From Perkinsus olseni (taxonomy: Eukaryota): 58,329 nucleotides of DNA. Both the position numbers and the translations under genes were made by a program. The notes under the pieces were generated by a model that worked only from the letters and a program-made list of their open reading frames with translations, made no database searches and was not told the DNA's origin. Shown here piece by piece: positions 1-58,329 of the stretch (position 1 is the stretch's first letter; each line of letters opens with the position of its first letter). Location: positions 1-58,329 of the forward strand of contig JABANN010000169.1 in NCBI GenBank assembly GCA_013115125.1, given 5' to 3'.

Positions 1-72
1 ATGGCGCGCGACGATTTGTACGTACAGATGTCAATACGTACGGATGAAAATACGTACAGATGTAGGGCTACG
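1..72. mobile_element. Probable end of an inserted element interrupting the adjacent gene
   Basis: Three spaced copies of TACGTAC(A/G)GATG. Similarity to the paralogue at 2436-3286 stops abruptly at about position 73. The rest of the element lies outside the window. Confidence 0.4.
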
Positions 73-547
73 AAATAGAGGCCCGGTGGCCAGGAACTGC
101 GTAAGAAAGAAGCACCGCTGCGAAAAGAAAGATACGAACAATGCAATCGCCCTACAAGGTCCCTTCGAACACCTCAGGTCGTGGACAAGTGATTTCAACT
201 GGTTGTATACCGTTTGTGTGTCGAGCTCTCAACTGCAAGGATTCCTCGTCGGGTGAGAAGAATTTGTGATTTGTGTAGTAGCAAACCGCACTGTTGTCTG
301 CGAGGACGAGCCGAGCTTCGTCCAGTTGAGGGAAGTCCTGAGAACAGCCGAATTGTGAAACACTCAGAGAGTAGTGGTAAGGTTGTTCTCAACAACAGTG
401 CCATTGAAAGCATACGATTGCCAACGAAGCTCATAATTCAGCAGCCATTCCTTGGCGACATACGAAAACACCTGCCGGTCTTACTTTGGCAATGGCGAGC
501 AAAGGAAAAACAGCTGTGGCTAGGATGAAGGTCTGCGTGGTCGGCAT
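73..547 (-). pseudogene. Truncated copy of a secreted hypothetical protein (paralogue of 2436-3286)
   Basis: Exon1 547-485 MPTTQTFILATAVFPLLAIAK (signal peptide); exon2 337-156 DFPQLDEARLVLADNSAVCYY...TCPRPEVFEGT; exon3 starts at 96 (SWPPGLYF), then homology is lost. Exon sizes (63 and 182 nt) match the paralogue. Confidence 0.7.
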
Positions 548-1006
548 TTGAGAGAGTGCCCCCAGTACTGTGTTAAAGATAGTACTGTTATGTTGGCTCG
601 TAGATTTCCTGCTCGATATCCTGCACTGTCAGGAAAACCTCAGTGGCAGTAGTGCGCTCGAGGAATTGGAAGAGATTGGAGCAAGATTCGACAAGTTGCA
701 TGCACAGAGCGGCCTCCCTTTCGCGCGCTTCCATAATCCTTGTTCCAACTTCACAACACTCTCACTCTCTTCGTGTACAGTTTAAATTCGCTAGACTGCT
801 CGGACCTACGCGCAGTCCGCACTTCCGCCAGTCCTCGGGTTCGCTTTTCCTCTGGGTTTTGGCTCTTAGCTGCTGACACTCGCAGTGGAAGGTTTTTATA
901 GGAATTTCCAGTCGCTACTTGCTTGATCAATCTCCGGGATGTCCCAAAATAGGTAGGCGTATAAGTCTGTGAAGCGCAGAACTGCGCTTCTTAGTGATGT
1001 CATCTA

Positions 1007-1538
1007 CACCATTTCCAGACCTACCCAGACCAAATTAGTTAAACCTAAGAGCAATTTAACAAAGCCCAGATCGAAATAGTAAAACCCCAAAGCAATTTAG
1101 GCGGCATGCGAGACGCATCCGGATCGTCCCTCCTCCCGGCCTGGGGACTCCGGCCTTGAGAGGCGGTAGAGCGAAGTCTTGGAAATGCGCTCCTGCCGTA
1201 CTGCGAGATGTAGCTCCGAAAAGGTGTTGAAGCGATTAGTTCAATCACGCCGAGACATTGTACCCTCGTTGCTCAGCTATGCAAGACATGCCAGTCGGAG
1301 CACCAATTCGAATGTTTCACGGTTATGTTTTAACCTGTGATCTGCAGGGTATCGAGGGCTCACTTCATGTAGCCTGACGATTGTAAGTTTTTACGTACTT
1401 CGTAAACTTGACTTGGTGACTTCGTCGAGCTCTACTAAATTGGTCTTTCATGAAACTTAATTGCTTTGGGGTTTTACTGTTTTGGTCTGGGTTTATCAAT
1501 TTGCTTTGAGGTTCTACTAAGCAGGTCTGGAAATGGTG
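1007..1538. mobile_element. MITE / non-autonomous DNA transposon, TA-flanked (Tc1/mariner-like)
   Basis: TA|CACCATTTCCAGACCT ... AGGTCTGGAAATGGTG|TA. The imperfect inverted repeat extends about 85-90 bp (e.g. AGTAAAACCCCAAAGCAATT and its reverse complement). No transposase. Confidence 0.8.
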
Positions 1539-1654
1539 TAGAAGAGGTAGCTCGCCCTCATAAATTGACGCAACCTTCCAGTGCCGAGCAGGATAACGTA
1601 GAACATGCGATAGCACTGCTGTCATAGCAGCGTTCAACGAAGACCCTTCGACTA

Positions 1655-1830
1655 CACCATTGACATTCTTGGTGTTAACAAATTCGATATGCGTCAAACT
1701 TTAACTTTATATTGACATTATTGGTGGTAACAAGTTTGACATGTGTCAAACTTGCGTGTTAATTGTCAAACTAGCTTGTGACATTGTCGTTCTTGCCTGT
1801 TCACTCGTCCAACTTGCACGGGAAATGGTG
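1655..1830. mobile_element. Short MITE with the same CACCATT terminus
   Basis: TA|CACCATT ... GGAAATGGTG|TA. The interior is rich in GTCAAACT and TGACAT subterminal-type repeats. Confidence 0.6.
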
Positions 1831-2435
1831 TAGTAGCAACAGGCCCAGGCCGGGAATGCCAAGGTGCCAATGACCGTCATCAGCGATGTACAACAAGCTC
1901 GCAACGTCAAGGCCCTTGATTCAAGGGCAATTCGGCGAGACGAGCCAGCTCCAGCAACAGTTCCCAGAAATCGCTGGCTTTCCGTTTGATGATGAGCGCT
2001 TCAAGCGTAAGAGTTTACGAGGACTGTACCCGGGGTACGCAGAAGATTCGATACTTTATCGAATAGCGTGTCGCGTAGCAGCAGAGTGGTGGTTGAGAAT
2101 GAGAAAGTGCTTCCCAACATCAATTCACACCTGTGGGCAAACCGTGGTTGCGGATCCTATATCGGGAAGACCAAGTAATGTCAACCCGATTAACTCACAG
2201 TAACCCGATTACATAGATGCCTTCCTACCTACGCCTAAAAGGCATCACGATATCTGCAGGCAAACCGCCAAGCATATCGCCCATTGATAAGACACTGGTG
2301 ACTTATCCTAGAGTAACACTGAATGACAGTAGGATTATTAAGTAACATCATTATCAGCATACATCTCAGTACAGCCCAAATGACTCGCAACATCTCACGT
2401 TCATGATGACAACACCTTGGCGTATGTAACCGTGG

Positions 2436-3286
2436 TCAATCGGGATTTAATGAAGATGAAGGACCGGGGTCGTTACTCTCCGGGCGCAATCTCGCCAACG
2501 CTGTCAGCAGGGCAAGGAGGACAGCCCCGGCGTCTCCCGCTCGTCGTCTGAAATTCCCCGGGGCGTAGGTGTCAACGACCTTGCAGAAGGACTTGAACGA
2601 AGTGAATTTATCCTGCAGCATCTCCCTCACAGCCGCACAAACTGCCTTCAATCTTGCACTAGTCTCCATCCCCTTCTCGCCCATAGCCTCCAAGCGTTCA
2701 TATCCAACGACCATTCCTTCCTCATTATCAGGGGTGTAGTTCAACTCCACGACGGTTGTGTTTAAGCTAGCCAGCTCTTCGCTAAAAGCCGACTCGTCAA
2801 AATAGAGGCCCGGTGGCCAGGAACTACATTAAGAAAGGCAGCGCTACGAGGTGGAAGATGCTAGCAACGCCATCGCCCTACAAGGTCCCTTCGAACACCT
2901 CAGGTCCTGTGCAGGTGATCACAACTGGTTGTATGCCAAGTGTGCGTCCAACGAACAGAGTCAGTGCCTCCTCGTGGCGGGTGAAGTGTTGGTGATTTGC
3001 GTAAACACAAGCCGCAGCGTTGTCTTCAAGTATGAGTGCCACTTTGTCCAGTGGAGGGAAGTCCTGATATCGGATGAATTGTGAAAGGTAAAGACGAGTA
3101 TACAGGTTGTTACGCCCAACGCTACCACCATCGACATGGCAGCATGCGATCGTTATCAACACTCATAATTGAACAGCAATTATTGCTTGCTGGCTTACAA
3201 AGACAGACACCTGCCGGTCTTACTCTGGCAATGGCGAGCAAAGGGAGAGCAGCTGTTGCTAGGATGAAGGCCTGTCTAGTCGGCAT
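2436..3286 (-). CDS. Secreted hypothetical protein, 3 exons, 210 aa
   Basis: Exons 3286-3224 (MPTRQAFILATAALPLLAIAR, signal peptide), 3063-2882 and 2823-2436 join in frame via GT-AG introns (633 nt). Structure is conserved with the copy at 73-547. Confidence 0.8.
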
Positions 3287-3856
3287 TTATGAGAGTGTCC
3301 ACAACACTGTGTGAAGAGATAGTGCTGTAGAAGCATTCCTGCTCGATCTCCTGCACTGCCAGGAAAACCTTCGAGAGAGGAGTGCGCTCGAGGAATTGCA
3401 AGGCATTGGAACGAAGTTGGACAAGTTGCGTGCACAGGGCAGCCCTCCCTTCGCGCTTTTCCATAATTCTCCGCCTTCCAAGAATTTCTCTTTCAGATGT
3501 TTAGGACTAAATCATTTCATACCTTCGAAAACTGAGGTCGTCCAACTTCGCAGCGTTTCTTCCGCTACTAACTCACACTCCACCCGAGCTAAGCTGCTGT
3601 CACTTATCCATTCGCAAAGAATTTCTAGTTTCGTTTTTCCCTCATTCTTGAGGTTGTGGATTGGCCTTTGCTTGCCGTCAGTCGTCAGCGAGAAGTTTTC
3701 TCCTCTGTCGTGCCTCCTTAGGCCAGCAACTCCAGTGAGTAAGCTTCGTATCGTGAACGAAACAGAATCGCCGAAACCAGAAAGATCTTACTGAGGTACT
3801 TCTCACTGCGCCTGGAAATTATCGCATCAACTTTCGTGACGGAAGGAAGTTCAGTC

Positions 3857-5839
3857 TCAGTCATCATCACTATCCAAGTCGATGTCCACCACCTCTCGGG
3901 GATAGGCAGGAGGCAGGTCACCGTGTTTGTGGGCAAGACGATTGCGGACGCTCTTCGAAAGCATTTTGGGCGACTTGTTGTCAGCGTCCTCCAACAGGTC
4001 TATAATAACCTAGATAACAGAGAGATGCTTCACAATGGATACCAAAGGAGAAGACTCCCACGGCGGACCAGTGGGGCGTCCGTTGATCCACTACTGTGCG
4101 ACAGAACCGTAGAGTGAGGGAAAACTGCACCGGACTTACATCCCACCACTCAGGCTGCTGTAGGCGGTCGCAGAGGAGGCGACTTGCAGGCCGGTCCAAG
4201 ATGTTGATTTTCTTAATCTTGGACAGATCAGAGGGAGGCCCTCCTTTGAGAACCTTCCGGTTGTCGGCACGTGGTGAGAAGACTGGGAGATCAAACTGAT
4301 GCAGAGCATCCGTGGCAGACCTAACGTGTCTCTCACTATCCCTCTCACCTGGACCTCGAAGTATTCAAGATTCTCATCAAGTTGGAAACCGAAGGCTCCA
4401 CTCCAGCGTTTAATTATGTCCATCTGATAGCGACCTTCGAGGACCTTGTTCTCAACCTGAACTCCGAGGAAGACATCACCGGAACCGCCAAGGAGAGGAG
4501 AACTCCCATTACCGCGTTGTTCCTCCGTATAACTCCACCATAGACGCATATGAAATCACCCTTTCGGAAATCTTTTGTTGCTACAAGCTTGTATCCAGGA
4601 TACGCAGGATGGTTCTCCTCACAGCGAACAACTGAGATCTGAGAAAGGCCACAGTGTAGTAGTCCGTAAGCACATCGTGGATTGATTGCCACATCTGGAA
4701 CCAAACACAATAATCCTCAAATTTCAAACCGACCGACCCAGAATCGACACCTGAGGGATTCGAACCCTCGCGGGCAGAGCCCAACGGCTTAGCAGGCCGC
4801 CGCCTTAACCACTCGGCCAAAGTGTCTTCGAGAGACAACCGTGTCATGACCTAGCCGCCCCGTTACTATCCGCTCGTCCCGCGACAGTTATTGTTACAGT
4901 CGCGACAGTTACAGTGATTGTCTTCACGGACGCCGACGAGTCAATCTTGCGACCGCTGTGCAGAAGGAATAGATGAAGTTCTTCGCACGGAAACCGAATG
5001 ATGAATACACGCACAGAAGGACAAGTAGGAAGTTGAGAATGGAGGCATGACATCGCCGATGATATGTGCTATTACCCCTTTCTCTGGTCCTGGTTTCAGC
5101 GGGCATGGACGTGAACTAGGCACGGTTCTAAACTCGCCGAACAGGAGCGCCTCTCTCAATGCTGATGTATGACAGCCCCCCTCGGCTGTGACGAATCCAC
5201 CGTCCAAGAGCACCCCGTCATAATAACTGAAGCCCTCTTGCCAAGATGTTCTGCTTATTTTCATACGCCTCTCCTCGGTGAGGCTCGGCTCCGAGTTCAT
5301 CACATTGTCCCAGTAAGTGGGCCCGTAGTGCACAAGGATCTCCTGCTTGCGTCTTATCGGTTTGGTTGCGACCAAACTCATGCATTGAACGGGAAGGCTG
5401 TCGTGCTCCGCCATGGGGTTGTCTGGACAGGCATCGCGACTGCTCTTCAGAATAAAACTGGCATTGGGGTCGTCAGCGTGGTTGGCAAAGCGGCCTTCAT
5501 TGCCTAAGTGTTAAAACGCCCTCCCTGGGATTCGAACCCGCGACCTCTTACCCACCCACTCAGCATCAAGTACTAAATCCCAGCTGTACCGTTCACTTTC
5601 ATCAACGTTGTCAATGCCCGTGAAGTCAATTTTCTCGGTTGTAGGAGCTGAAGGATCGACATCCCCGGTTCGATCCCCCGCACCGGCATCTCACAAAAAT
5701 ATGTCACGTCCTTGCCCCGGGTTGACCTTTTCTGCAGGCTCCTCGCAGCACCTTTCCCTAATCCATCATTCTTGCCCTCAGCAAGATCTTGCCGCAGTTG
5801 GCCTTTAATGAACGATAACATCACGCTGCTCAACTCCAT
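3857..5839 (-). CDS. SET-domain protein (putative lysine methyltransferase), multi-exon; 5' end uncertain, may extend to about 6.8 kb
   Basis: Spliced LVLDAEWVGNEGRFANHADDPNA and LVATKPIRRKQEILVHYGPTYW (SET C-half motifs, 5650-5300); GYKLVATKDFRKGDFICVYGGVI (SET N-half motif, 4605-4525); acidic end VVDIDLDSDDD* at 3857. Confidence 0.75.
4745..4826 (-). tRNA. tRNA-Ser(GCT): tRNA-Ser (anticodon GCT)
   Basis: GACACTTTGGCCGAGTGGTTAAGGCGGCGGCCTGCTAAGCCGTTGGGCTCTGCCCGCGAGGGTTCGAATCCCTCAGGTGTCG folds into a full cloverleaf with a long variable arm, A and B boxes, and loop CTGCTAA. Confidence 0.96.
5504..5551 (-). pseudogene. 48-nt spliceosomal intron consisting of a tRNA 3'-half remnant (sense)
   Basis: GTAAGAGGTCGCGGGTTCGAATCCCAGGGAGGGCGTTTTAACACTTAG: variable-loop AGGTC, exact B box GGTTCGAATCC, then TTTT. 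Removal restores ...EWVG-NEGRFANH. Confidence 0.8.
5648..5694 (+). pseudogene. tRNA-Phe-like 3'-half remnant forming a 47-nt intron of the SET gene in antisense
   Basis: Plus strand CTGAAGGATCGACATCCCCGGTTCGATCCCCCGCACCGGCA resembles the tRNA-Phe(GAA) 3' half. The minus strand reads GTGAG...CTTCAG and its removal joins DVTYFS-PTTEK in frame. Confidence 0.7.
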
Positions 5840-6875
5840 ACCACAACTTGCACAACAATTGGGTTCGCTCAGATGAACAGTAGGACGGGCCTACCTGTAC
5901 ATCCTAGACACTGACGAGGTCGACCAACCCCTCGCTATCAGTCGATCGAAACTGAGGGATGAACTCATTCCTCGACAAACGTCCCTACCACAGTTTCGAA
6001 TACATAGTGAGTAGCGACCAGCGTATCCAACCTATCCGCAACTCACCAGCTTCAACATAAGATACAAACTACCATCCCATTAAAAACCGTATACTCATTT
6101 CCGAACTCCCAGCGCTGAACTACCGCGGAATATTATCCCGAAGGCATGCGGCAGCATTCCAAAGATATCTTCGCACTCGATATATTCCACCCTCCAACCC
6201 CCTCCTATCACCATTCCTGAGACTCCAAGCAAAGCCGTCTATAGTCGCTCGCCGGCAACTCGTGCAGGCCATGGATCGACTCGCGAAGGAACCTGCCCAA
6301 CCCAGTGAGTGGGACGCTTTTCGTGTCACCACGATTACTCCAGGAGCTCCAGATCAACCGTTTCCAGATCTTTCGCGTCCCCTCCCGCCCGCCGAACCCT
6401 GTCCTTCAATCGCTCCCACTCGCCCTGAATTAATTGACACTCCTACACCCATCAAGGGCAGTCCGTACGAGCAGCCTGTCTCCAAGACCGGGCCGATTCT
6501 GCTGCCCTCGAACACTCATCAAGAGCACTATCCGATCACACTTCTCCTCGCACACTTCAATCCATTCATCAAGGTCCTCCTGGGAGACCGCCATCAACAA
6601 CTGCCCCTGCCATTGGTGATTCCATCCAGGACTGTTAACTCGACACCGTAGGTTACTGGATGCTGCTCATTGCGAATTTGGTACCACTTCGAGGAGGCCC
6701 CGAGAGTAATGACCAGTATGCTGCCGCCATCACCGCCTTCGCCGCTGACGCCACTTGAAGGAGCATCATCGTAAGACTTTTGAGGAGAACTGTACGCTGT
6801 TCAACGACGACCATCATCAAATGCATTTACTATAGTAGCTAGAGGTGTCAGAATATTCTTCAGTATTGAAGGCAG

Positions 6876-7685
6876 CTAACCTTCAATAGACTGCCGTACC
6901 TGTGTAAAGCATGCTCGACCTCAAGATTCTCCTCAGTTCAATTACCAGTCTGCGAACCTTCTTCTTGTAGGCTGGATAGTCCTTCTTAAACTCAACCTGG
7001 CAAAAGAGGAATCTTAGCTTGCAGCGTGCAGGATACGGATAGGTCGGAGAATACTTACTGCTGCATCAACATTAGCAGGTGAATCCAAATTGGGCGAGGC
7101 CAGCATAGATATAACAGAAACCAAGATAGACTCCACACTCAGACTGCATAAAATACACCACCCTAGAATTGAACCAGGGACCTTTCGCATAGCATTACAT
7201 TGGTCTCCATCGTTCATCTGCGGACTCTAGTTCATTAAACTGGTCTGTTCCCGGTGGGTGAAGAATTGATATGCACACCCGTCCATCTAAAAACATTTTC
7301 AGTTCTCCCAAACTCCCAAATTCCCACCCTCCCCCGTCTACCAGGATAGACGTTGGGATGCCACATGGGCGTCTCGAAGCGCATCGCGGGCGGGTTATTG
7401 GGGAAGTCCTCAGGGAACTGCAGTATCGCCGAGAAGAGGCCTCCTTCGTAAAGAGAGTCCGGAGGGCCTGTCAGTTACGCGCTGGGAAAGAGGTCGTTGT
7501 TGTTATTATTACCTTCAAAACAGACACGCCACTTGAAGAAGTCAGAATCGTCTTCTAGACCGACCGAAAATCCACAGGAGTCGTCCCTTGTTAACTCTAA
7601 GATTCGACAAAGATACGCCCAACTTGACCTCAAGATTCGCCGTACCAATAAGCTGCTTTTTGAGAAGCTCGCGAGCAACAGACAT
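6876..7685 (-). CDS. Ubiquitin-conjugating enzyme E2, UBE2G/Ubc7 (Cdc34-like acidic loop) family, 7 exons
   Basis: MSVARELLKKQLIELTRDDSCGFSVGLEDDSDFFKW...GPPDSLYEGGLF...[63 protein letters not shown]...VRQSIEG*. All junctions are GT-AG and in frame. Confidence 0.95.
7144..7198 (-). pseudogene. 55-nt intron of the E2 gene consisting of a tRNA 3'-half remnant (sense)
   Basis: GTAATGCTATGCGAAAGGTCCCTGGTTCAATTCTAGGGTGGTGTATTTTATGCAG: T-arm CCTGG-TTCAATT-CTAGG still pairs (one G-U), preceded by AGGTC and followed by TTTT. Removal gives [11 protein letters not shown]. Confidence 0.8.
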
Positions 7686-8366
7686 CAAACTATACGGAAA
7701 CAACTGAGATTAATGAGAACTGTCAGTTAGTGGAGAGACGCGCTGGTATCATAGGTTGAAGGGTGCAAGATACGAAATAGCTCATCGATGCGATCACGAG
7801 TCGACCTCGCAAAGACGAAGCGAACGTCATTGCAACGGATTCTGCAGAGGTGTGGGATGTTCTGAATCTGAACATATCCTGGCACAGGCGTTTACGTAGT
7901 AGAGAGCTGGATTTTTTCGCTCACCGTTTACACGCAGCGCATAATCGTTCGGAATTCTGAAATCGCACCTCGGGGCCATCCCTGGGCTCTCTGCTCACCC
8001 TCGTGAACGCTGGCGGCGTATCCAAGGTCGATGCTTACAACGGACGAATAAAGCACCGAGGATAACGACATCCGTGGCAATAATCGCGAGTTCAGACTTG
8101 TGACGATGCGCGAGTTAATCTCTGGGCACGTCCACTCTGCTTGTCATTGCTTCGAAGTTGAGACCCATTACTGCAGAGCCGCTTGAGCGGACGTGCAGTC
8201 TTCGCAATGGCAGAGGGATAGCTCGTTCGCTCTCCCCCGCGGTGTCGATTGATCTGACCAATGATTCTTGCACTTAATGGTTTCATACTAGGTTTTAAGG
8301 CCGTTATCACAGTTTGTCCCCCAATCCAGTACCACTCCTTCCCCAACTCGTCTCTACACCACACCG

Positions 8367-10879
8367 ATGATCGCCCCGAAAGCGACTATCTTGACCCTTT
8401 GCATCCACTTAACGACGATGGCGTTGTGGGCTGCCTCCCCCCCTCGCCGACGAAAACCCCTCGGCCGCATCAAGGTGGGTGGTCCAATCCATCAGCTGCT
8501 GTTCTATTTCGACGTCCTCTCCTGGATCTCTCAGGTGGGGCCTTTGAACAACGATGGGATCATGGAGTGTATCGCTGTCCGAGAAGGAGATCCAAACTCT
8601 CCTCTCCTCATCTTCCACATCGATCGAGTCAACAGGGGCATCGGCATCAGTACCGTCCGGTGTGGCAGCCACCGCTACGTTCAGTAAGTTGCCCTTCTCT
8701 TCATCCATCTGGCTTCCTCGCCGATCGACGACACAACAGTTCCTGTTTTCCCCTCTGGAATCTTTCAGCTGGCGTCTTTTCAATCCCCCTGTTCTGATCT
8801 CAGAATCGGTTTTCACACGAAAATTGCAGTTTGAACATCAATTTTGTGTCTTAGAATCAGTTTTGATCTGAACGTCCCCAATGTCTCACCTTACATTGAG
8901 GTACCCCTCCCACCATCGGGCCCTTCAGTTACCCTTATCAGCTCGACGACTTCGCTTCGGGAAGGCCGGCCTTACTGGAGCGGGTGGATGATGTCAATGC
9001 AGCCGGACTGATAGTAAAATCAACGCGTTGCCCGGTGGAGATAGGCGACCCCTTCATGCAGCGGAAGTATCAGCGGATTTTCCGGAAAATTTTCAACTTT
9101 TTGAGACTGGAACCCGCGGAGCGATGTGAAGCTGTTCTTATCGGACTTAAGTCGAGAATGGTGGGAGAGGAAGGCACTCATGAGCAGCTTCATGACGCGA
9201 TTTGCCTTCTTTACCTCGAGCTAACCGCCCCCTTAAGGACAGGTTAGTTGTGTATCATGATGTTCGCGATGTCGTTACTCACGCGATGATGTGCTGTTGG
9301 TCTTGTCAATGACGGGACAGGAGCGGTCCACTCGCGTCCTGCCATGGTGACGACCTCATTGGGGATCTTCTGAAGGCGCTCTCTTGCGATGGATGATCAA
9401 CGCCTGCTCGTACGGTGAAGTTTGGTAGCGTTTATGCTCGCATCACCACTGCGACCCTCCTGGACGGGTTGGCTCATCATCACTATCGGTCATCGCAGTG
9501 TTCTCCCACCCACTCCACCATCTAATGCACAGCCCCGTCCCCACCTGGAAGGTCTTCTGTTTGCTCATTAACTGCGCGGCGGCGCTCAAAGGCGGTGAGC
9601 CTAACCTCAAGTTGTCCTCCTTGGACTCCCAGAGCGCTATGGAGGTAGTGTCCGTCTTGTAGCTGATTTTTACATTTCCTGTCATCAGTTGCATGGAGAC
9701 CGCCGCGGGAATAACCTGATTCGATGCACTTGGTGGGAGCAAGGGAGGTCTCCAGACCTGGGGGAGGGTCTCGGCTTCCAGTTCTATGTGGACCAAGTCA
9801 ACGCGGGAATTGGGACTCGTTCTGTTCGTTGTTCGGGAGAGGACTTCAACTAGTAAGTGTCCAGTGGGATCCACTTGGTTAGGATGGACGTTGCTCAGCA
9901 ACGACTACCTACCTGCCATGTTCCAGCGAAGGATTCCGGCGTTTTCGGAAGACCATCCGGGCGTTACCGACCCCCTGATGCATGCCGACTTCCGCGGTCT
10001 GTTTGACGTCTCCTCCGATGGCTGGGAGGACCTCGAGCCAGTCGGAAAGTGCCGCGCTGCGCTTGAAGGGTTGAGGCGAAAGCTGGCCAGACATACCGGG
10101 AGTGATGAGGAACTTTTCAATGCGGTGTGCGTGAGGCATTCTATCATGTCCCTGTCTCTTGAGTAACGATGTTCGTGGAGCTGTTGTTGATGAGCATTCC
10201 ATGCCTTGCTTTCTAACCATCTTATATAGGTTTTCCCTCTCCTCCTGCCAGCTCCGTTCGGACACCCTCGTCCCTATTTCGTACCATGTTCGCCACTCCG
10301 AGAAGTGTACTGTGGGTGTGGCTCGTCATCCCCACCTGCGAAGCGGCGACCAAACTTGGAGGACCTGGCTTGACGGTAGCGTGAATCAGCTTCACTTCAT
10401 TGCTACCAAACCACGGTCAGCAGATGACTGGACAGCATCTGCCGAATGGCCTCACTCTCTGCACTTGGCGGGAGGAGAAACCACGCAAGGCTCTAGGCTA
10501 CACCTTCTACGTGGACCATATCAATGCTGGGATAGGTTCTCGCTCCGCGGGATGCCCAGGAAAAGGATATCGCTAGTAATAAGGGACGCCATTCAACCTC
10601 TCTTGAGCTGCTCCTCGTGCCAGTTACGATTATACTCTCTCTCATTTCTCCAACGGGGAGGCGACTACTATGGATGGTTCGCGTTATCGTCGGGACCCCC
10701 TCATGCAAGCCCGTTTCCATGGACTTTTCGATGCCCGCTCTGAGGCGTGGAGAAGTCTCACGCCGACGGCTAAGTGCTTGAAGGCTCTGGAGGGCTTGAG
10801 GAAGAGGCTGGCCCTCAGTACCTTCGCCGGGAATTACGAACTACTTGATGCCATGTGCCAGCTTCAACCTAAGATATGA
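8367..10879 (+). CDS. Secreted hypothetical protein(s) with three copies of a DP(L/F)M...C...GL...A.C module (one gene or three tandem paralogues)
   Basis: Signal-like MIAPKATILTLCIHLTTMALWA. Homologous segments at about 9047-9215, 9969-10130 and 10694-10860. The apparent stops at 9247 and 10166 coincide with GT donor sites. Confidence 0.6.
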
Positions 10880-13133
10880 TTCTCGTCATGTTGTTGTTCC
10901 CCGGCAAGTTGATGTCTGTGTATGCTTTATGCGTTTTTGTTTTGGGAGAAGCAGCAGCTGTCATTGCCCTTCTCCCAGTTCCCCTATGCGCCTTTCGCCA
11001 CTTGTCTTCCTTGAATGCTTCACACCAACCATCACTTATCCAGAGCAGCCGTCGATGACGCGAGAAACGAGGTATGAGAGAGTCTTTGATGTGACGCCAA
11101 GCCAGTGGCTTGAAGCCACCACGCTTAGGAGGACCGCGGTGGATGAGCAGCAGCATGTCCTGATTGGCGGTGACATGCTCCTACCATTGAGTTCGAACCG
11201 GACAGCCTCGAGAGTTGCTGATGAGGTGGTACTCGCCCGCCGTCCTTCCTAGTAGTCGGCCACTGAGCCCTTTACTCAGTAGAGCGATAATGCGTACACT
11301 GCTGTCCACATCAGCCCGGCCTGGTCCTGGTCCTCCTGGCCCGGTGGAATCATCAAGTGAGCCGCTCTCTCGCTGATCGACCTCACCACCCTCCAGTTAC
11401 ACCTTCCACCCGTACCTTCAACCCTGCGCCAGGTCTGCCTTCTACGCTGGGGCTTCGGTCTGGGAGAAGTAAGAGCTCAGCCACCAGTCTGATCGCAATG
11501 GATGGCCTGGCCAGACACACTTGTATTCGCTTCCAAGAACAGGAGTATACGCCGGACACGACGAGACTATTGCTGGTGAGCTGGGCGACGCTAATTCTCC
11601 GTAGCTCGTTAACGCAAACCGCTTGACTTTGAGGTGAAGTAATACTTGTCAAATATGTTATAGTATGCTAAGGAACGTAGCACAGCGGAAGACAGAAGAT
11701 GTGTCATGGCACAACGTGAACGGTACAACGGTCAGCAGGTGCAGAGTGAAGGCTCCAGCTGCTTCACCACTCTGGGCTACCATTTTGATAATATCCACAC
11801 TATTAATCTTGGCGACGGGTGTAATATTGAGCTTTCTAGCATCACATTCTGATCGATCGGGACAGGTACGAGTCTTGGTACCGTCATTCACGAGTTGGGC
11901 CATGCCATAGGGCTGCCTCATGTCCAGAACAGGCCAGTACTGTCCGCCCAGGATCGTTTTAGGAGAGTCTTGATGCTGCAGGATCGTGACGCTTATGTCG
12001 ATATACTTTGGGGTAACATAGTGCAAGACAAGGAGAAGAACTTCTTTCGGCTGGATAGCGTCCGAAGTCCGTGGCTGAGTGCGGTGAGGGGTGAGCAGGG
12101 CATCGACCTCGGCCCAAGTGGCAGTGGGAGTCCCAGGCACGGTGTACGACTACGAGTCAATCATGCACTATGGCGAGTGCGAATTCAGTGTGAGTAGTGG
12201 GGAGTGCGCCGCTATGGGTCGGCAGTCGAGGAGCAGGTTACCAGCAAGGATTCTCCGTGTGATCCGACCGTCCTCACGCTACAGCCTGAGTAGGGCGGAG
12301 GATGACTGCGAAAGGAGGGAGGCGGTCGTGGTGATCAGATGGCGGCATTCGATCGGGCAGCGGCAGTCCCTTTCTGAGGCGGACATCGCCATCGTTAATG
12401 ACATATATGCCTGTGAAGCGACCTGTGCGGATGGAATCTTGAATCAGCTTGAGTAAGTCTTGCCTTTAGAGCATCTTTCCCTTCGGTGGCGAGAGGCAGG
12501 CTACGGATCTAAGTGGAGACATCGCGTGCTGTGAACGACCTTCGAACTCATCTCGTTATGAACTTTCTTTCTGCTCCATTCCGACGTTGTCGTAACCTGG
12601 GTCTGCGACCTGGAGAGGCCTGTCGTACGACAAACCTTCCGATGCTGTTCTCCTTTTTGAGCACTCGAAGCTTTCCTGGAGCCATAAGAAGCATCGTTGG
12701 GAGGCAATAAGGCGGCCCGTGTCGCAACCCTCTGTAGGTTCGATATCGACTGTGGTGGACAGAGCTGTCGGAAAGACTGCGCTGACCCCACCGGTGAGGC
12801 CTCTCCCCTCCAACCGTCATCATGAATATCTGATAGACGACGGCCTCGCTAAGATAGACGTGGAAGTGTGCGGCTCGACAGGCGGTTCCTCCTGGTGGTT
12901 GTGGATCCTCGCTGGTACGTCGTCAGCGTTCAAGGCCGTTGTTACGCGCCTTTCGGTCTGAGTCAGCGGTGGGTGGTATCATTACCTTGGTGACCATCTG
13001 CTTCCTGGTTGACCGAGCTGTTCGAGGTGGCAAGTCGGCGTTCGACGGTGATGGACTGATGTATGCGGAGGACTACGAGGACGACGAGGAAGAGGAGTGT
13101 GGCGTAGACGAGGAGGGCGAAGGGGAGGAGTAG
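10876..13133 (+). CDS. Astacin-family (M12A) zinc metalloprotease with C-terminal membrane anchor, multi-exon
   Basis: GDMLL propeptide motif, WPGG, TCIRF, HELGHAIGLPH..RPDRD, YDYESIMHY (Met-turn), IGQRQSLSEADI; hydrophobic WWLWIL/GGIITLVTICFLV segment followed by an acidic tail. The start may be 10912. Confidence 0.92.
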
Positions 13134-13258
13134 CGCGTCGCTTCTAGCGGCCGTTAGAGCAAGTTCTCTTCAGGATTTACTCGAGCTCTTCCCCGTACAG
13201 CGACAGTTTGTATGGGAGGGACAGTCCTTGTGACACCGGACGAGCTGACCAGCGCAAC

Positions 13259-13880
13259 ATGACCTTCTTCAGTATTATTCGCTCACACGCCGTCTTTGGC
13301 TGCAGTGGCTGGTAGCAGGTCGTCGACTGGAGTATTCCCCTAACAGCATGGTCCAAGATTAGTGTCCGGTAATGATCGTACTGTGAATGCAGCCGCCGCA
13401 GTCTCGTTTCGAATGAAGCTCACGCCCGATGTTGCCGTGGTACATGAGGACGAGTAACTTCTGTGTTGGTCAATGCTTGGGGTGCCTTCTGGGTGGGAAG
13501 TATTCCTGCTACTGGGTGACCCTATCGAGGTGACCACCAGTGGCGGCCTATGAAGGGAACAGGCATGTAGTTGATGATTGAGAGCCGCCGCGTTCTGCTG
13601 CGTCACTACTGCGTAGGGACCTCGTCTCTCGGCCCCAGCGGATACACTAAAGTGTCTTTTCGAGGGAGTAATCCTCACAACTGTAGAATTGAGGTCGTCG
13701 CGGGGATTTGGCCGGATGCTCACAACGATGATGTCTGCTTTTCCTTATCTATTCCTACCCATCATGGCATACATCATCAAGAGAGCTGTGCAGCACAGCG
13801 TCTTCTTGCCTGAGAGCGAGAGGCCTCCACCAGGGGTGAAGCCTGGACAGGATCTCAAAACCCCACCCCAGGATATGTAA
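13259..13880 (+). CDS. Small hypothetical membrane protein, multi-exon
   Basis: Last exon encodes hydrophobic MMSAFPYLFLPIMAYII followed by a Pro-rich tail. Upstream exons are tentative. Confidence 0.35.
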
Positions 13881-13884
13881 AGAA

Positions 13885-15109
13885 TGACGCTTCCTCGGAG
13901 AGATGGTGATCATTCGGGTTCAGAACAACAACCTACACGACAGCAGCCTCCGCTAGACAGCCCGACCACACCTACTTGCGGCACACTACTTTCACGGACG
14001 CATCCGAGTAGGTGGCCGTTATAGGAGAATGGGGGTCCTTGCATGGCCCTTCTTAGATACGGAAAGTGCTTTGCAAATGTCACCAAAATGGACTGCGTTG
14101 TCCAACGGAAGGACCTAGCGGAAAGATACCACCAACGGCGGTAGGACAAGAGAATCTTAACTCGCCTCTAGCTTCACGCAAAACAGGGAGCGCAAGGCGA
14201 AACGATCCGACCAACTGTCCGAAGGGGCCACCAGCTTCGACCAGAAGGCCCACGAGCTCTCGAGCGCCAGCCACTGGACGGTATCCCTGCCGTCATCTCC
14301 GCCACTTTGGTTGAACTTCTTCTCAGACCTCTTATCGTGCTGATTTCATTGAGGCCCGGAGAGAGGGTGACTGGTCTATTGCCGAAACAAAACCTCAAGT
14401 TAGGGGAGGAATCACGGCTGTCGTACCTGTCAGGTGATAGAGGTGTATCATCAATAAATGACAAGAGATCAACGGTGGTGCGTTCAGATGCGTTACTGAG
14501 GACACCGGCATCTCCTCCTTCACTGAGCGCTTTGGGGAGTATGGAAGCGCTCCGAGAGACCTGATCGCAGAGTGGGTTTAAACGGCGGCTGGGAGAGGTT
14601 ATGTCGTTCTCTTGATAGCCCGAATGCAGCACAGTTGCCAGTGAAGATAACAGCTCTTGAAGACGGAACTACGAAAGGTGGGGCCTTTAGGAGGTCTGTG
14701 ATGAAAGTGGAATCGCTGCTGCCTTTAGGGAAGGCGCACGTTCCCGGTTACCAAGGTTTCATACCGTCCAACGTCCGCAACCCTTCTGTAAGGACGGTCT
14801 GTGTATGACCGCGGATCTCTTCCGCTCAGGTCGTCTCTCAAGCTCTCGGGGAAGATACCAGACAAACCATAGACAAAACGACCATGACTGAGATATACCA
14901 TCAGAATGTGCCCGGCTATGGTGGACACCTTCCCACTGGTACTACCTTAGGGTGGCGGGCACTCTCCGCTGGGGCGCAGGAACTCCCCGTTTTCAGAATC
15001 TAAGAACGACAAGGGGCCGCGGCAGCTCACAACGTCAACCATTTTCGGTTCTGATTATGCCGTGAAGGACTTCAGCAAGAGTGAGGAATCTTCGGATCAT
15101 TCACGCTGA
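13885..15109 (+). CDS. FAM166/CIMIP2-like PGY-repeat (ciliary microtubule inner) protein, multi-exon; ends approximate
   Basis: HVPGYQGFIP (about 14738), CPGYGGHLP (about 14908), and RYGKCFAN and TIFGSDY segments typical of PGYxGxxP...(F/Y)G repeats. Confidence 0.55.
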
Positions 15110-17324
15110 CTCTGGTGCCTGGGTTATAATTGCCATGCAAGAGATGTTGCCCTGTCTGTGGATGCCCAGCTGTTGCTTCAGTGGCTCTCAATAGACACCA
15201 TAGGCACTGGCTCTGTGTTGCTGGTCGTTCTCATCCCTTCGATCATCATGGTTATTGTTAAAGTTCCCTCTCTCCTGCCTCGAAGAGATTCTCGCGGGTG
15301 TGGCGGCATTGCCCGTCCATGTCATGGACAAGAGGCCGGCTCTCGTTTGTGCTTGGCAGTGTCCTTAGCGTCACTTAGACAGACAAGACGCATCGAATGG
15401 CGGAATGCCTGCATCGCCTTGGCAACTTGGAGCCCTTTGCACGGTCTACCTAACACAATTGAACTGTGTGTTGAACACTGTGTTCGCTAGCTTCGTTAAA
15501 CTAGCGTCCTGTTATTAACATATTTAGCCTATTAGCCTGTTCTCTTAATGTTGCGTCCTACCACTACATTCTCCACGAACGAGATCAGGTACATTGGCTG
15601 CCATCAGCGGCACGGTAGTGTGGATAGCGTACGCGCTTGAGGAGTTTGACTCGCTAAAGAATTATCAGCGAATCACTGAGAGCGATTTGAGGTAAGCGTG
15701 GATCAGAGGCATCTCAAGCAGTGCGCCAGTTCACGAGCCGGAAATGCCGCACACCATCCGGGCTCCGGATGCTGGTGTATGTGACACGTCGAACCCCTTC
15801 TTTGATACCTTTAGTCTTTGAGGCTCTGGAGCTGGTCGTGAGTTTCCCTACGCTCTAAGAGAGAGGAGCTAGCTTATATCCTGCCCACTGTACCGCCAGT
15901 GCAGCGGCAAGTAAGTAGTAACACTCGCGCTGGTTGACTCAACAACACCTGGGATGGACAGAAATTCTGTCACGGAATGATTGAGTGCAGTGAGAATTGA
16001 AGCTTCTTACACTCATTCCCAGCGTGACCTACAGCGCGATCTGGATATGGTGGGGATCCTTGGCAGGGTGCATGTACAGCCAATGGTGACCAGTGAGAGT
16101 CTTTTGTACCTAGCATGGCCCTCCTCATCATGTATTCTAGGGTGGAGAATCTCGGCCGTTGAACTTCTCGTCTCCGTGATAGGACAAGGTGCGGGACTCC
16201 ACCGACGTCGGTGAGGTCGACAGGACCTTACAGCGGCAGTGAGGGCAGCGCGAAGGTGAACTATGCGAACGCTGGAAGCCATGCTACAAGTGGCCATCGT
16301 GTTTCGGAAGTCTCCTCTAAGAGAACTCGGTTTAAAAGAATATGAATGCGTCAGGAGGGCGACGCTCACGTACTGAAACCGTTATCGAGCACCCAACGGC
16401 CCAACGAGGTGCCGCGGTAACGAGCGTGTCCCTTTCTTGAGCACTTCGTGGGGACAGCGTGATATGGCATCTCCCCAATCCGGTTTTAGCCAAGATAAAT
16501 CACAGTGGTTTGTGACCGAGTGACTCGGTCACTCAATGTTCGCTCAGCAAGTTACTCCGCTTTGAGCGCTAAACTCGCGGAGAAAGCCTTGTTGAACAGT
16601 TATGGGAACTTTCTCGAGGTGCTGCGACGTAGCGAATCCATTTGGCGCGCTTTTCCACTTCATAGGCGCTTTGGCTAGAGAGGAATAATTTTTGTGCACC
16701 ATACCAGCTATGGGACACAACCTATGGCCATTGAGGTCACATTGCTCGCCCACAGCAGAAACGACTAGAAGATGTGGTGCGTGACCGATGTATATCTATG
16801 ATATTCAAGAAGAGTAATTAAGGGTTTGATGATCAGAGTAATTGCATTCGTAGTGTCTATCCAGTCCTTTTGTGCATCTCTCTCCAATATCGAGTTCGTC
16901 AAGCAACAACCAGGGGCAGGGATTGCCACAGTATCGTTTTATCTGTAAGCATGTAAATTTATGTACACCCGAAAAGACCCGATTTCATATTAAGCGTCAG
17001 GCCCTGACGGGCAGGGCGCCATGGCCAACACACCCGACTGAACGCGGCAGATAAACAGCCCAGACTTAAAGGTCTCTTATGAGATGAATTTTGTTGAAAC
17101 ATAGTTTATGGTATTAGCTGAATGGTCTCTACCTGATAGTATCTCCCACAGAGCTCCAGCATGAAGCTCCGTTACATTGTATCACGCAGCCACGGTAGAG
17201 AGAGTGAACGCCCATTTTCATTCAATATATCAAACTTTTTATTAAAAAGTCGTCAAGGAAGGCCAGCGTTGTCACACGCGTAGTAGTTCAATGTATTATG
17301 ATCATTGGACTGATCTTCACGCGC

Positions 17325-19413
17325 CTAGAGTGCGCGACACCGCATCGTCAGAACCAAGTCCTTAGGGCATGTCGTTAACGCGTTTTCGAACATAGTGGAG
17401 ACGACCTGATCGTCGAGGAGGCGGAAATTGTCGAAGTTTCGCAGCAGGAGAGCAGCGTTGCATAGGAGCTCTCTGATCGCCAGATGCCTTCCCGGGCACT
17501 GTCTCGGGCCACAGCCGAACCCAATAAACTCCAATCGCTTCTCGTCTATCGAATCGCCACTTGGCGTCAACCAACGCTCGGGCCTGACCAATAAGGAGGC
17601 CTCCCACACCGCGACATAAGTACCTCGTGCAAGTTGTACAAGATAGTGCCTTCCCCCTACATGAACTTCTCGCCTTCTTCATAACTCTCCCGCATCATCT
17701 GGCCAATCGGGAAGATGAGTCGAGTGCCGGCTTTCACCACCTTTCCTGCTACTTCACAGTCGACAAGGGCTCCATTGATGCTGACTGGTACGGAGGGATT
17801 GAGCTGAGAACGTTCGATGTATTCGACGAACGATTCAATCACCAAAGTTGGAAATTCCTACTTGGAGTCACCTCAGACTTACTCTAAGAGTCTCCAGAGC
17901 ACACGCCTCAATGAAGGGCATGCTACGGATAGATTCAACTGATAGTTCTTCAAACGAGTCTGCTTCTCTCCTTGCTCTCTGTTGGATCTCCGGATGAAGA
18001 CACAAATTCGACAGCAGCCACGACATGGCGCTGGCGGTGGTCTCTGCCCCAGCACCGAGGTACCTTGGAGAATATGGGTCAGTACCACCACTCCGCTATT
18101 GACAGTACCATACTGATAACATTGAAGTTCAATGATCGAACCGCCTTACATGACAAGCGTATGTGCAAGTTCTTCTTCGCTGAATTCCCTTCCTGCACTA
18201 TCCGGGAGGCTTTTGCACACATGAGGGCGATCCAGCCCATCCCTCGCGCGCCGACGGATGGCGTCTACTATTTTTGACTCGATACGTCGGCAACGCTGCG
18301 CGAACTGATGAACACAGTGTTCCTCAGGCGAGCACCGCTGCAAACTTACCTCTCTAACTCCGGGGAATACTAGTCGATAGAAGAAGCGGTCGTGGTAGAA
18401 GACACAAGAGGGGTTAAGAGTTAGCATGAAGGCATCGCTGATGAGGCTCCAGATCTCATCTTGCATCTCATCGGTGTAAAGTGGATCTGAAAAGCATCAT
18501 GGACGCTCATGAGACGAGTAACCCAACTGCGACCTTCAGAAAGGATTGGGTCGTCCTCGCCCATGTAGACGGCTGAGGCCACTCTCGCAGCACACAGTTG
18601 GAGGTCTCTCACAGGGCGCCATACGATGCGTCCCTCGCGGACAGCAGATTCTTTGAGTCTTCTAATCTGCAACCCAAAGGCTTCGCCGACACAGCTTGAG
18701 GAGCTCCGACCCACCAAATCTTGCGCAGTGCCGCTAATCATGGGCAAGAGTTTGTCCAAGTTGGTCTCCATCAGTGGACGTGACGATATTCTTCGGTGCT
18801 TCTTCCACAAGTCGCCCTCACTCATAGCCATATTGACACCATCCATGATATTCGCAAAGTCGGGTGCGCTGAACTCTCTCGGCCTCCTCTTCATGACGCT
18901 TCGGTAGGTTGGGACGTCGGACACTACTAGCACTTGGCGAGTCGGTGTCCTGCAGAGACGGTATCTCCTTATCACAACAGAATGCCCATAAAGAGAGTCT
19001 GTGGGGCTCACTTTCACGATGCGGATGCCAAGACTCACTTGAAGCAACATATCTTCCCAAACTTCCGTGGCAAGGTCATGAGTTCTTTGAACTGATCTTC
19101 TGTTGACATGAGAGCGAGTCGGAAGACGAAGCTCATCTGAGAGAGTCAGGAACTGGCTTCAAGCGATCTCGCTAGCTCTTCCTAGTTTGCAAAGGAGCCG
19201 GACGTGCACCCAACCATTCTACGGTAGAATTTCTACCCCGGGTCCCGGGAACGGTGTCCGCTCAAACATTCTCTTGACCGCCTTCAACACCTTCAGCCCA
19301 ATAACGCCAGCTGCAGCGGCAATGATTACAGATGACAGATTAAGAGGCGGATAAATCTGCCCGTGCAGCGACCTTGGGAGTGAAGTTCTGAAAGAGCGTA
19401 GGAGCGCTGCCAT
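17325..19413 (-). CDS. Cytochrome P450, multi-exon
   Basis: N-terminal anchor plus PFPGP, WKKHRR, I-helix AGAETTA, K-helix ETLR, PERW, heme motif FGCGPRQCPG. Confidence 0.95.
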
Positions 19414-21174
19414 TGATTGGGCTGCTTCTCAACTGCAAGGGTTATTTCTGGTGGATTCGCCAAACTCATAACTCAATCCCATGCGAATGCGGAATCATGT
19501 TTAAGCTAGTTACTCTAGCCTAGAGTAGACAGGGAGTGCCGCGTCAGGACTGCAGCTGCAATGTTTCGAGAGACGCATGGAAGGGGTCATCCCAGAGTGT
19601 CCTCTCTGCTGCCACAGCAAACTTGAATCTGCTGGATCGTCTTCGCCCCGCAGAGCTGCTGGCCGCCGTCGCAGCTGGTCTCGACGCATGCATGCATTGG
19701 CAAGCTGTGTCCCCGGCGCCCGCCTGCTCTTGTCTACCCGATGTAGAGACGAGCCGGATCGAGTCGCACTCGCACTGAGCAGAGTCTGAAGCTTGTAGAC
19801 CAGTGACTCGCTGTCGCCGAGTGTCGAGGGCGGACTCACGACTCGTGAGTCACGAGTTGAACCCTGAGCTTGAGCAGGAACGCTCTGATCACTCCACTAA
19901 GGATCGACGCCCCATACGATGTGTATGGGGCCCACGGCGCAGTTTGTATGAGCGCACCCTCCCTCACAACCCTTCTGCTGTCACTTCGAAGACCCGTGCG
20001 CTGTGTTGCCTCCCATCCCCAATTTATGGTGGTGCGACCCGCACCGTGTGGAAGGCTTTGTTTTTCCATTACCGAGCTCGCTACCCCTCCGTTACTTTAA
20101 GAGCTTCAAGAGCTTTGAGAGGCTGCTTATGTGCCTGCGTGCGGCGCTGTACTCAAGTGTACGCCACTGGCCTGTCCACTGGCAAACCCTCCAGCGCCTA
20201 GCCCTTCAATCTCACCAAAGAACGTAATGGAGGCGCACACTGCTCGGGAGCGATGGCTGTCGAGGCAGTGTTTCTCCTCTGAATCAGAGGCTGAGCCCCC
20301 GAAGCTAAGACCAGTTTACTGTATCTCAGCGCGAGTTTCGTGTCCCGTGACGACAGGTACGTCATCACCCTGCCAACCTCCCAGTCCTCGGCGGGTTAAG
20401 AGATTTCGCAAGTTTTGGAACTCATTAGTCGAGAACAACTAAATAACGGAGTTAGCTCGCTAGCTGAGTCCCTCACCGAAATCGCGGACCTATTCGGGAA
20501 GGTTTGTGATGACACCGATAGGTCAACGTACTACCCTGTTCCTATGATAATTACTAACTATTAGTTAGGCTGCCCTGGCACACAGTCAGTTAGTCAGCAT
20601 GTTGGGAGCGTAAGCGATGCGAACAAGTAAGTTATAGACCCTATCATATGGTTTTTCCATCATAGTGAACTACGTAATACTCGTCTTGCGCCCATCATGG
20701 GATTGGTTTTGTCACCCAATGTTGGAAGACCGGATATTTCCTGTCACCCGGATGAGTAGTGCTTCCGCCTAGCGATTAGCGGATCAATCGACACCAAGTG
20801 GAGGCTGCCAACATTCTCACCAAGTAGCAAAATGATTATTCGCAGTGTCATTAAGACTCCGTCGCATTGTTCCTTGAGCTGGGCTACGTTAAGCCTTCGA
20901 TTCTTCCATTTCACTGTTGTTGAATATATTCTCTGTCTGCTCTCTCTGAAGAAGAGTTTCGAGTTCAGTACAACCCTATGTCCCAAATAACCCGTCCTAC
21001 TATCAAGAACTCGAAAACGCCTCCCAAGGAAACTAGATGTCCACTACTGAGTTATGTATGCGTAAGCGTATGATAAGAGATTGAGAAGATGGCAATAATG
21101 CCATGATGCTCATGATCCGATCATCGAAGGTGAAGGATCCAAGCTGAATCTTGTGTAGACTATTGGATGAGTGT

Positions 21175-53899: not shown

Positions 53900-54318
53900 G
53901 TGCATGAGTCCTCCGAGAACCCGACAGTTGACAAAACGATCTTTGTGTTTGGCATGTCGTTGTTACTGCCTAGAGTGCCGGTCTCTCAGCCGTTATCCGC
54001 CCTCACCGGTTCCACCGCGCGGTATTGCCTGCTCTGTTCCCAGCCTTAGCCAGTGCCCGCGACTTCGGATGTCCGGATGTGATGACTTCCGCCTACCCAC
54101 CCGAGCTTAGTGGCCCCTTGGGATGGGCTGCTGATCTCCGACCGACTCTCGGCACGACACGTCATTCACTCAAATCTCGCCCCCGCATGGGTTACAGGTG
54201 GTCGCTACTCACCCGGCTTACTCAATAAAGGATGTCACGGCTCTATGCGGTACAATGTACACAAGATTGGGAATGGTGTGGTATGACATGCACACATATG
54301 TTTTGTGTAATATGTCCC
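53900..54318. repeat. Direct repeat copy 1 (over 400 bp)
   Basis: High identity to 57912-58329 (CCCGACAGTTGACAAAACGATC ... GGTATGACATGCACACATA), offset about 4012 bp. Confidence 0.95.
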
Positions 54319-57911: not shown

Positions 57912-58329
57912 CTATGGAAGTCCTCTTGAGGCCCGACAGTTGACAAAACGATCTTAGTGTTTAGCATGTCGTTGTCATTGCCTAGAGTGTCGATCTCTCA
58001 GCCGCTATCGACCCTCACCGGTTCCACCGCGCGGTATTGCCTGCTCTGTTCCCAGCCTTAGCCAGTGCCCGCGGCTTCGGATGTTCGGATGTGATGACCT
58101 CCGCCTACCCACCCGAACTTAGTGGCCCCTTAGGATGGGCTGCTGATCTCCGACCGACTCTCGGCACGACACGCCATTCACTCACATCTCGCCCCCGCAT
58201 GGGTTACAGGTGCTCGCTACACACCCGGCTTGTTTAATAAGGGATGTCACGGCTCTATCCGGTACAATGTACACAAGATTGGAAATGGTGTGGTATGACA
58301 TGCACACATACGTTTTGTGTAACATGTCC
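57912..58329. repeat. Direct repeat copy 2 (runs off the window end)
   Basis: Aligns with 53900-54318. Confidence 0.95.

Follow-up and report, generated by a model that had tools for sequence, protein, structure and literature searches.

We analysed a 58,329-nt stretch, a whole contig, of the genome of Perkinsus olseni, an alveolate that parasitises molluscs (GenBank assembly GCA_013115125.1, contig JABANN010000169.1, positions 1 to 58,329), which is called the window throughout. Minus-strand positions 5504-5551 form a 48-nt GT-AG intron of phase 1, intron 12 of a P. olseni SET-domain gene. It is a working intron built largely of a relic of a transfer RNA (tRNA) gene, which is unusual. Our preferred explanation, which we hold to be probable, is that intron 12 is an ordinary spliced GT-AG intron whose interior derives from a class-I tRNA gene, as a decayed, nonfunctional copy of its 3' third in sense orientation. 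The spliceosome removes the intron at its donor and acceptor, and the relic would comprise the variable loop, the T arm, the 3' acceptor strand, the discriminator and a T4 stop for RNA polymerase III (Pol III). The tRNA-like part appears to be a passenger that is inactive as RNA, because it has no 5' half, a broken T-stem and no excess of folding.

Splicing of intron 12 in the SET-domain gene

The last SET exon, used as a protein query, returned an annotated P. olseni protein of 684 aa, P0001, with 99% identity, as well as relatives in P. marinus and P. chesapeaki. By an exact-match map, P0001 has 17 exons, and 5504-5551 is its intron 12; the RNA contigs described below agree. On the minus strand, the intron follows exon 12 (5552-5647; exon map and RNA contigs), which ends in DAEWV and the first base of a Gly codon, and precedes exon 13 (5076-5503; exon map and Pfam), which starts with the last two bases of this codon and NEGRFANH. 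The codon is thus interrupted as G/GC, within DAEWVG/NEGRFANH. It had been claimed from the letters alone that the intron splits the codon of a conserved Gly of the SET motif, and both the exon map and Pfam agree: the SET domain spans the junction (P0001 residues 350-422), and exon 13 on its own matches SET profile positions 60-105. Removal of the intron restores the reading frame and the SET domain. If the intron is retained, the frame runs through GKRSRVRIPGRAF and then meets a stop. The borders are a GTAAG donor and a TTAG acceptor; judged by eye rather than by a formal test, they resemble each other over 4-5 nt only.

Contigs of three RNA-type runs from three studies (X7, X10 and X8) and of one DNA run (X6) were placed on window positions 1-20000. 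X10 is recorded as RNA, and the RNA status of X7 and X8 is our guess. The joints used here are the 15 listed of 49 read-contig joints; being contig-based, they give no splicing level, and introns beyond position 20000 rest on annotation or Pfam. All three RNA runs skip exactly 48 nt at 5504-5551. They also join across 5648-5694 (47 nt), 7144-7198 (55 nt) and 4639-5075 (437 nt), and the joints at these four introns have CT..AC ends on the plus strand. In the DNA run, no contig carries any of the four joints, and one contig of 11156 nt is uninterrupted over 4804-15959. Splicing of the junction was one of the checks proposed in the preliminary description, and its outcome is clear: three RNA runs skip the intron and the DNA run does not. 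The intron 12 junction is real, accurate and present in independent data. With the introns at 5648-5694 and 7144-7198, both tRNA-like as described below, splicing is RNA-backed for three relic introns in two adjacent genes.

Two further observations concern the same gene. An X8 RNA contig (172 nt, depth 2.2) covering window positions 3983-4154 is unspliced through the 130-nt intron 16, which could reflect either retention or DNA carry-over. In addition, P0001 is annotated as an E2-SET fusion protein, while the transcripts give evidence for two genes at window positions 6600-7000 of the minus strand. RNA contigs join donor 6945 to acceptor 6900, removing a 46-nt intron, and the E2 frame then ends in VRRL VRQSIEG and a stop; SET transcript contigs begin at ~6605. 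The annotated 339-nt intron 6945..6607 is absent among the 15 of 49 joints listed. The annotated fusion is therefore probably two genes.

tRNA-like layout of intron 12 and of an E2 gene intron

Read from 5551 to 5504 on the minus strand, intron 12 consists of GTAAG, AGGTC, GCGGG, TTCGAAT, CCCAG, GGAGGGC, G, TTTT and AACACTTAG. This is the order given in the preliminary description, which listed a donor, AGGTC, a segment like a 3' acceptor strand and TTTT. Positions 5513-5546 make up a tRNA gene-like 34-mer with AGGTC as the variable-loop word (we take AGGTC to be a common tRNA variable loop), GCGGG/CCCAG as the T-stem, TTCGAAT as the T-loop, GGAGGGC as the 3' acceptor strand, G at the discriminator place, and TTTT. 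The 34-mer fills 34 of the 48 nt (71%) and leaves only GTAAG and AACACTTAG. Its layout (AGGTC, a 5-nt stem, the T-loop, 13 nt made of 5+7+1, and TTTT) follows that of a class-I tRNA gene end.

An intron of the neighbouring E2 (UBC) gene had been said to share this arrangement, and we found the compound pattern to be common to both. The intron in question, intron 4 of the E2 gene (7144-7198, minus strand, 55 nt, spliced in the three RNA runs), has the layout at 7150-7183. From 7198 to 7144 it reads GTAATGCTATGCGAA, AGGTC, CCTGG, TTCAATT, CTAGG, GTGGTGT, A, TTTT and ATGCAG, and all five T-stem pairs are kept. The pattern AGGTC-N5-TTCRANY-N13-TTTT occurs twice in the window, both times in a sense intron, and in 0 of 300 simulations, a figure that is generous since the pattern was set after both introns had been seen; each of its parts is a standard tRNA feature. 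The simulations used for the layout, for T-arm hairpins and for relaxed ARAGORN were first-order Markov sequences, not strict dinucleotide shuffles.

Intron 12 also contains an exact B box, GGTTCGAATCC, at 5528-5538, identical to the B box of a real tRNA-Ser gene 760 nt off. The B-box word GGTTCRANYCC occurs three times in the 58 kb (0.54 expected): in tRNA-Ser, in intron 12 and, on the other strand, in intron 11, the exact B boxes of introns 11 and 12 being 140 nt apart. The B box of the E2 relic is imperfect (GGTTCAATTCT). For words with one mismatch the window shows no enrichment (17 seen versus 14.8 expected), and the same holds for A-box words (6 versus 3.07, a count that 15 of 100 shuffles attain).

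The tRNA-like part begins with the variable loop, directly after the donor. Intron 12 holds no tRNA 5' half, and the nearest A-box word lies in the real tRNA-Ser. Of the earlier reading as a sense tRNA half, the sense orientation and a tRNA 3' part ending in T4 stand; 'half' was too much, as the piece corresponds to roughly the final third of a tRNA (positions 44-73). ARAGORN at its default settings calls no tRNA in intron 12. Relaxed ARAGORN (85%) returned noise, 8 genes versus ~7 in 20 simulations, and is useless for relics. Permissive Rfam searches of small stretches gave no RF00005 match in intron 12, the E2 intron or a relic near 48.4 kb that is described below. We rejected a functional tRNA gene, finding no cloverleaf by ARAGORN or RF00005 and no 5' half. 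RNA folding is not in excess in three relic introns (z = +0.58, -0.59 and +0.14); the value of +0.58 belongs to intron 12, for which 141 of 200 shuffles give an equal or better fold. A retrocopy of a mature tRNA was also rejected, as CCA is absent after the discriminator place of intron 12 and TTTT stands there instead. Because TTTT, not CCA, is found at this place, the letters point to a source of the relic in a tRNA gene or in the primary transcript of one, and away from mature tRNA.

The T4 run

The T4 run of intron 12 (5513-5516, minus strand) directly follows the discriminator place, lies 9 nt before the 3' splice site and continues as TTTTAAC. In the E2 intron the run is 6 nt from the 3' splice site and reads TTTTATG. 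Two signal recognition particle (SRP) RNA genes of the window offer a comparison. They lie 4 kb apart on the minus strand (53938-54217 and 57950-58229), with scores of 98 and 99.3 bits, slightly below the Plant_SRP gathering score of 105. Both end in G-TTTT-G, one base past the 3' end, which makes it believable that Pol III stops at a T4 run in P. olseni. The tRNA-Ser(GCT) gene at 4745-4826 has no T4 within 50 nt downstream. Under our preferred explanation, the T run of intron 12 would be the remnant of a tRNA gene terminator, and it may now belong to a word resembling a branch site, TTTTAAC (in the E2 intron, TTTTATG).

Neighbouring relics and an amplified tRNA-Ser gene

Intron 11 of the SET-domain gene (5648-5694, minus strand, 47 nt, spliced in the three RNA runs) carries an antisense tRNA-like piece, with its B box at 5667-5677. 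On the plus strand this piece reads ACATC, CCCGG, TTCGATC, CCCCG, CACCGGC and A. In the relics of both intron 11 and intron 12, the B box is intact and outer T-stem pairs are broken. Intron 13 (4639-5075, minus strand, 437 nt, also spliced in the three RNA runs) contains an intact sense tRNA-Ser(GCT) gene at 4745-4826, called by ARAGORN and by RF00005 (62.5 bits). Its depth in the DNA run X6 is 13468, in 20 contigs, versus 48.4 for single-copy DNA (~280-fold); therefore tRNA-Ser(GCT) copies are in the order of hundreds.

Two more tRNA-like introns lie further along the window. A 149-nt intron in a gene for a 3'-5' exonuclease (RRP6-like; 48378-48526, minus strand), placed by Pfam PF01612 on both flanking exons, holds a weak sense relic that resembles a whole tRNA. 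An A-box word (48493-48503) and a T-arm hairpin with 4 of 5 pairs (48446-48462) are separated by 43 nt, the spacing of a whole tRNA; Rfam and default ARAGORN do not recognise this relic. In a formin/PTEN-C2 gene, an intron known from annotation only (36303-36649, minus strand; gene models P0005 and P0006) starts with GCAAGAG, AGGTC, CCGGG and TTCCAAC, resembling the first half of intron 12. It is the best other match to intron 12 in the window by blastn (15 nt, 1 mismatch, E = 0.43). P0005 and P0006 disagree on its donor, which is GC at 36649 or GT at 36640. Five relics are in sense and one in antisense orientation, too few to test. Apart from these relics, one 13-mer, GAATCTTGAGGTC, is common to E2 intron 1 (7626-7638) and E2 intron 6 (6917-6929), both on the minus strand; its blastn E-value is ~0.03, and it may reflect either coincidence or related intron sequences.

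In the explanation we prefer, the relics would reflect the very high copy number and the scattering of Perkinsus tRNA genes, with many copies entering introns and decaying there. The locus may then display several stages of this process: a whole tRNA-Ser gene (437-nt intron), a weak whole-tRNA-like relic (149 nt) and 3' pieces (55, 48 and 47 nt).

Alternative origins and roles of the tRNA-like sequence

A decayed copy that landed in an existing intron must be weighed against a copy that made the intron. In the latter case, a tRNA-gene fragment or a 5'-truncated nascent Pol III transcript would have been inserted into an exon and created intron 12, and tRNA pieces would be intron-generating elements. 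The small remainder outside the relic, only GTAAG and AACACTTAG, speaks for such a gain, as do two other very short introns built alike beside intron 12, the 36.6-kb intron that repeats the donor plus the AGGTC-N5-TTC junction, and a relic end of TTTT rather than CCA. However, the borders of intron 12, read by eye, give no clear sign of a target-site duplication or of a terminal repeat. Near-identical copies were not found either, the best other match in the window being the 15 nt mentioned above. Intron 12 shares no 31-mer with other loci, because the X6 DNA contig is unbroken over 4804-15959. An introner of recent origin with many copies is made less likely both by this continuity of the contig and by the absence of longer matches. 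Taken together, we regard the gain of intron 12 by insertion as unlikely. The broader proposal is more doubtful still: amplified tRNA genes, or 5'-truncated U-tailed nascent transcripts, would act as intron builders in Perkinsus, the 3' third supplying most of a ~48-nt intron and the T run plus A joining the branch signal.

The relic might also have been kept for splicing. Here the T4 run, alone or as TTTTAAC, would serve as the pyrimidine tract or the branch site, and intron 12 would depend on it. Its distance from the 3' splice site in intron 12 and the E2 intron (9 and 6 nt) is consistent with such a role, and in 6 of 16 introns, both of these included, we read by eye a TTNAY-like word at a distance of 5-8 nt from the 3' end. 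We compared the 16 spliced introns of the SET and E2 genes. T4 or longer runs are present in the last 25 nt of 4 of them and absent from 12. The pyrimidine fraction of the last 20 nt ranges from 0.35 to 0.70 with a mean of ~0.5, and intron 12, at 0.40, is second lowest. P. olseni introns at this locus do not generally need a T run, and the earlier suggestion that the run provides a needed 3' pyrimidine tract finds no support in them. We consider dependence of intron 12 on the T4 run to be quite doubtful.

Chance likeness is the next alternative, a GC-rich short intron that happens to hold a B-box-like 13-mer and a T run. A number of results favour it and weigh against a tRNA-gene relic. Only 3 of 5 T-stem pairs are kept in intron 12 (5 of 5 in the E2 intron), and T-arm-type hairpins of this quality number 7 in the window against 4.1 expected, a count reached by 20 of 200 simulations. 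Five of the seven hairpins are in introns and two in long open reading frames, a split that has no exact P-value. RF00005 finds nothing in intron 12 even in a 241-nt search, and all that Rfam matches there is a 13-nt hairpin, GGGTTCGAATCCC (5527-5539), to tmRNA with E-values of 9.1 and 1.4. The absence of any enrichment of one-mismatch B-box words points the same way. The layout pattern was defined post hoc, and the decay series described above is a reading across five different loci, not a traced history.

The search for a parent tRNA likewise came back empty, in the one tRNA of the window and in exact-word scans of prokaryote genomes and metagenomes. The sole tRNA of the window, tRNA-Ser(GCT), agrees with intron 12 at 7 of 7 loop bases and at 12 of 23 flank positions, which leaves it unproven as the parent, and we set this candidate aside. 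By the test set in the preliminary description, a tRNA that aligns beyond the 11-nt B box, the parent is still missing. The relics match one another at 13-15 of 23 flank positions, as tRNAs do, versus 12 of 23 at best with tRNA-Ser. An exact 22-mer from the 3' end of intron 12 has no occurrence in 596 Gb of prokaryote genomes, and a 25-mer of the E2 intron has none in the prokaryote genomes either. The one metagenome match to the 22-mer (contig L001, 151-172, minus strand) lies within a GC-rich reading frame that is open throughout, on a 25-kb contig in which no tRNA is called, and is probably a coincidence. The collections hold few or no perkinsids, so these blanks weigh little.

Against chance stand the compound layout, seen twice but never in the simulations, two exact B boxes in adjacent introns so close to each other and to a real tRNA, and the location of five of the seven hairpins in introns. 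On balance, chance seems to us a poor explanation, and a decayed tRNA-gene copy inside an ordinary spliced intron remains the reading we prefer.

Least probable of all, to the point that we give it little credence, is that TFIIIC occupies the intronic B boxes in the absence of Pol III, in the manner of extra-TFIIIC (ETC) sites, with an effect on chromatin or on the tRNA-Ser gene nearby: the exact words at 5528-5538 and 5667-5677 and the intact B boxes of two relics with broken outer T-stem pairs would fit such a role, but the B box of the E2 relic is imperfect and B-box words overall are not enriched.

Significance

The origin of new introns is an old open question, and the intron-generating elements known to us are transposons. 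At this locus, functional introns of very small size are made up largely of tRNA-gene ends, and the genome carries single tRNA genes in hundreds of copies. If the pieces created the introns and did not just land in them, Pol III gene copies would join the sources of spliceosomal introns, and the question of intron origin would become testable in a culturable protist. A share of the tiny introns of Perkinsus would then be 'tRNA-derived introners', a so far undescribed source of introns. If they did not, the result is of use for annotation: B-box words in Perkinsus introns would be relics, not tRNA genes. The locus hints that the many tRNA gene copies of Perkinsus help shape its tiny introns.

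Comparison with known systems

Amplified tRNA genes are known from the genus. In P. marinus, 349 copies of tRNA-Leu-CTT, 116 of tRNA-Gly-GGA and further copies are reported in the accessible part of Kojima and Jurka 2013 (PMC3706591), and such hundreds of copies of single tRNA genes compare well with the ~280-fold depth of tRNA-Ser in P. olseni. Dada transposons target tRNA genes in P. marinus, and the same part of that paper describes them as DNA transposons of 4.7-11 kb at fixed sites inside tRNA genes; nothing in the 48-nt intron 12 is alike. It makes no mention of introns carrying tRNA pieces. Introns were found in 69.2% of 104 Perkinsus genes (accessible part of Zhang et al., PMC3101222). 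In the literature searched, which did not cover subscription journals, no report of tRNA pieces in introns of Perkinsus turned up.

Introners of Micromonas, Aureococcus, dinoflagellates and Amoebophrya are short repeats that form whole introns, as far as the accessible portions of PMC9860276 and PMC7789003 describe them, and Amoebophrya, which has invasive intronic elements, is a relative of Perkinsus (PMC7789003, likewise in part). Unlike introners, the relics described here have no near-identical copies within the window, no terminal inverted repeats and, with the borders read by eye, no clear target duplications. The words Perkinsus, tRNA and SINE do not occur in the main texts of two introner surveys (PMC9860276 and PMC12130899).

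ETC sites likewise have an isolated exact B box without a working tRNA gene, and the available section of PMC3395662 defines them by TFIIIC occupancy. Unlike at ETC sites, the B boxes of the window come with a variable loop, an acceptor strand and T4, which points to the decay of a gene copy.

Short interspersed elements (SINEs) derived from tRNA also scatter tRNA-derived sequence in genomes, often in introns. They retain the 5' promoter part with the A and B boxes, to which an unrelated body and then a tail are joined, whereas the piece in intron 12 is the 3' third only and ends at the gene's own terminator. Finally, tRNA genes and pseudogene fragments nested in introns resemble our case in that a Pol III gene or its remains sit inside a Pol II intron and are spliced out together with it. 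The difference lies in proportion: the relic takes up 34 of the 48 nt of intron 12 rather than a small part of a long intron.

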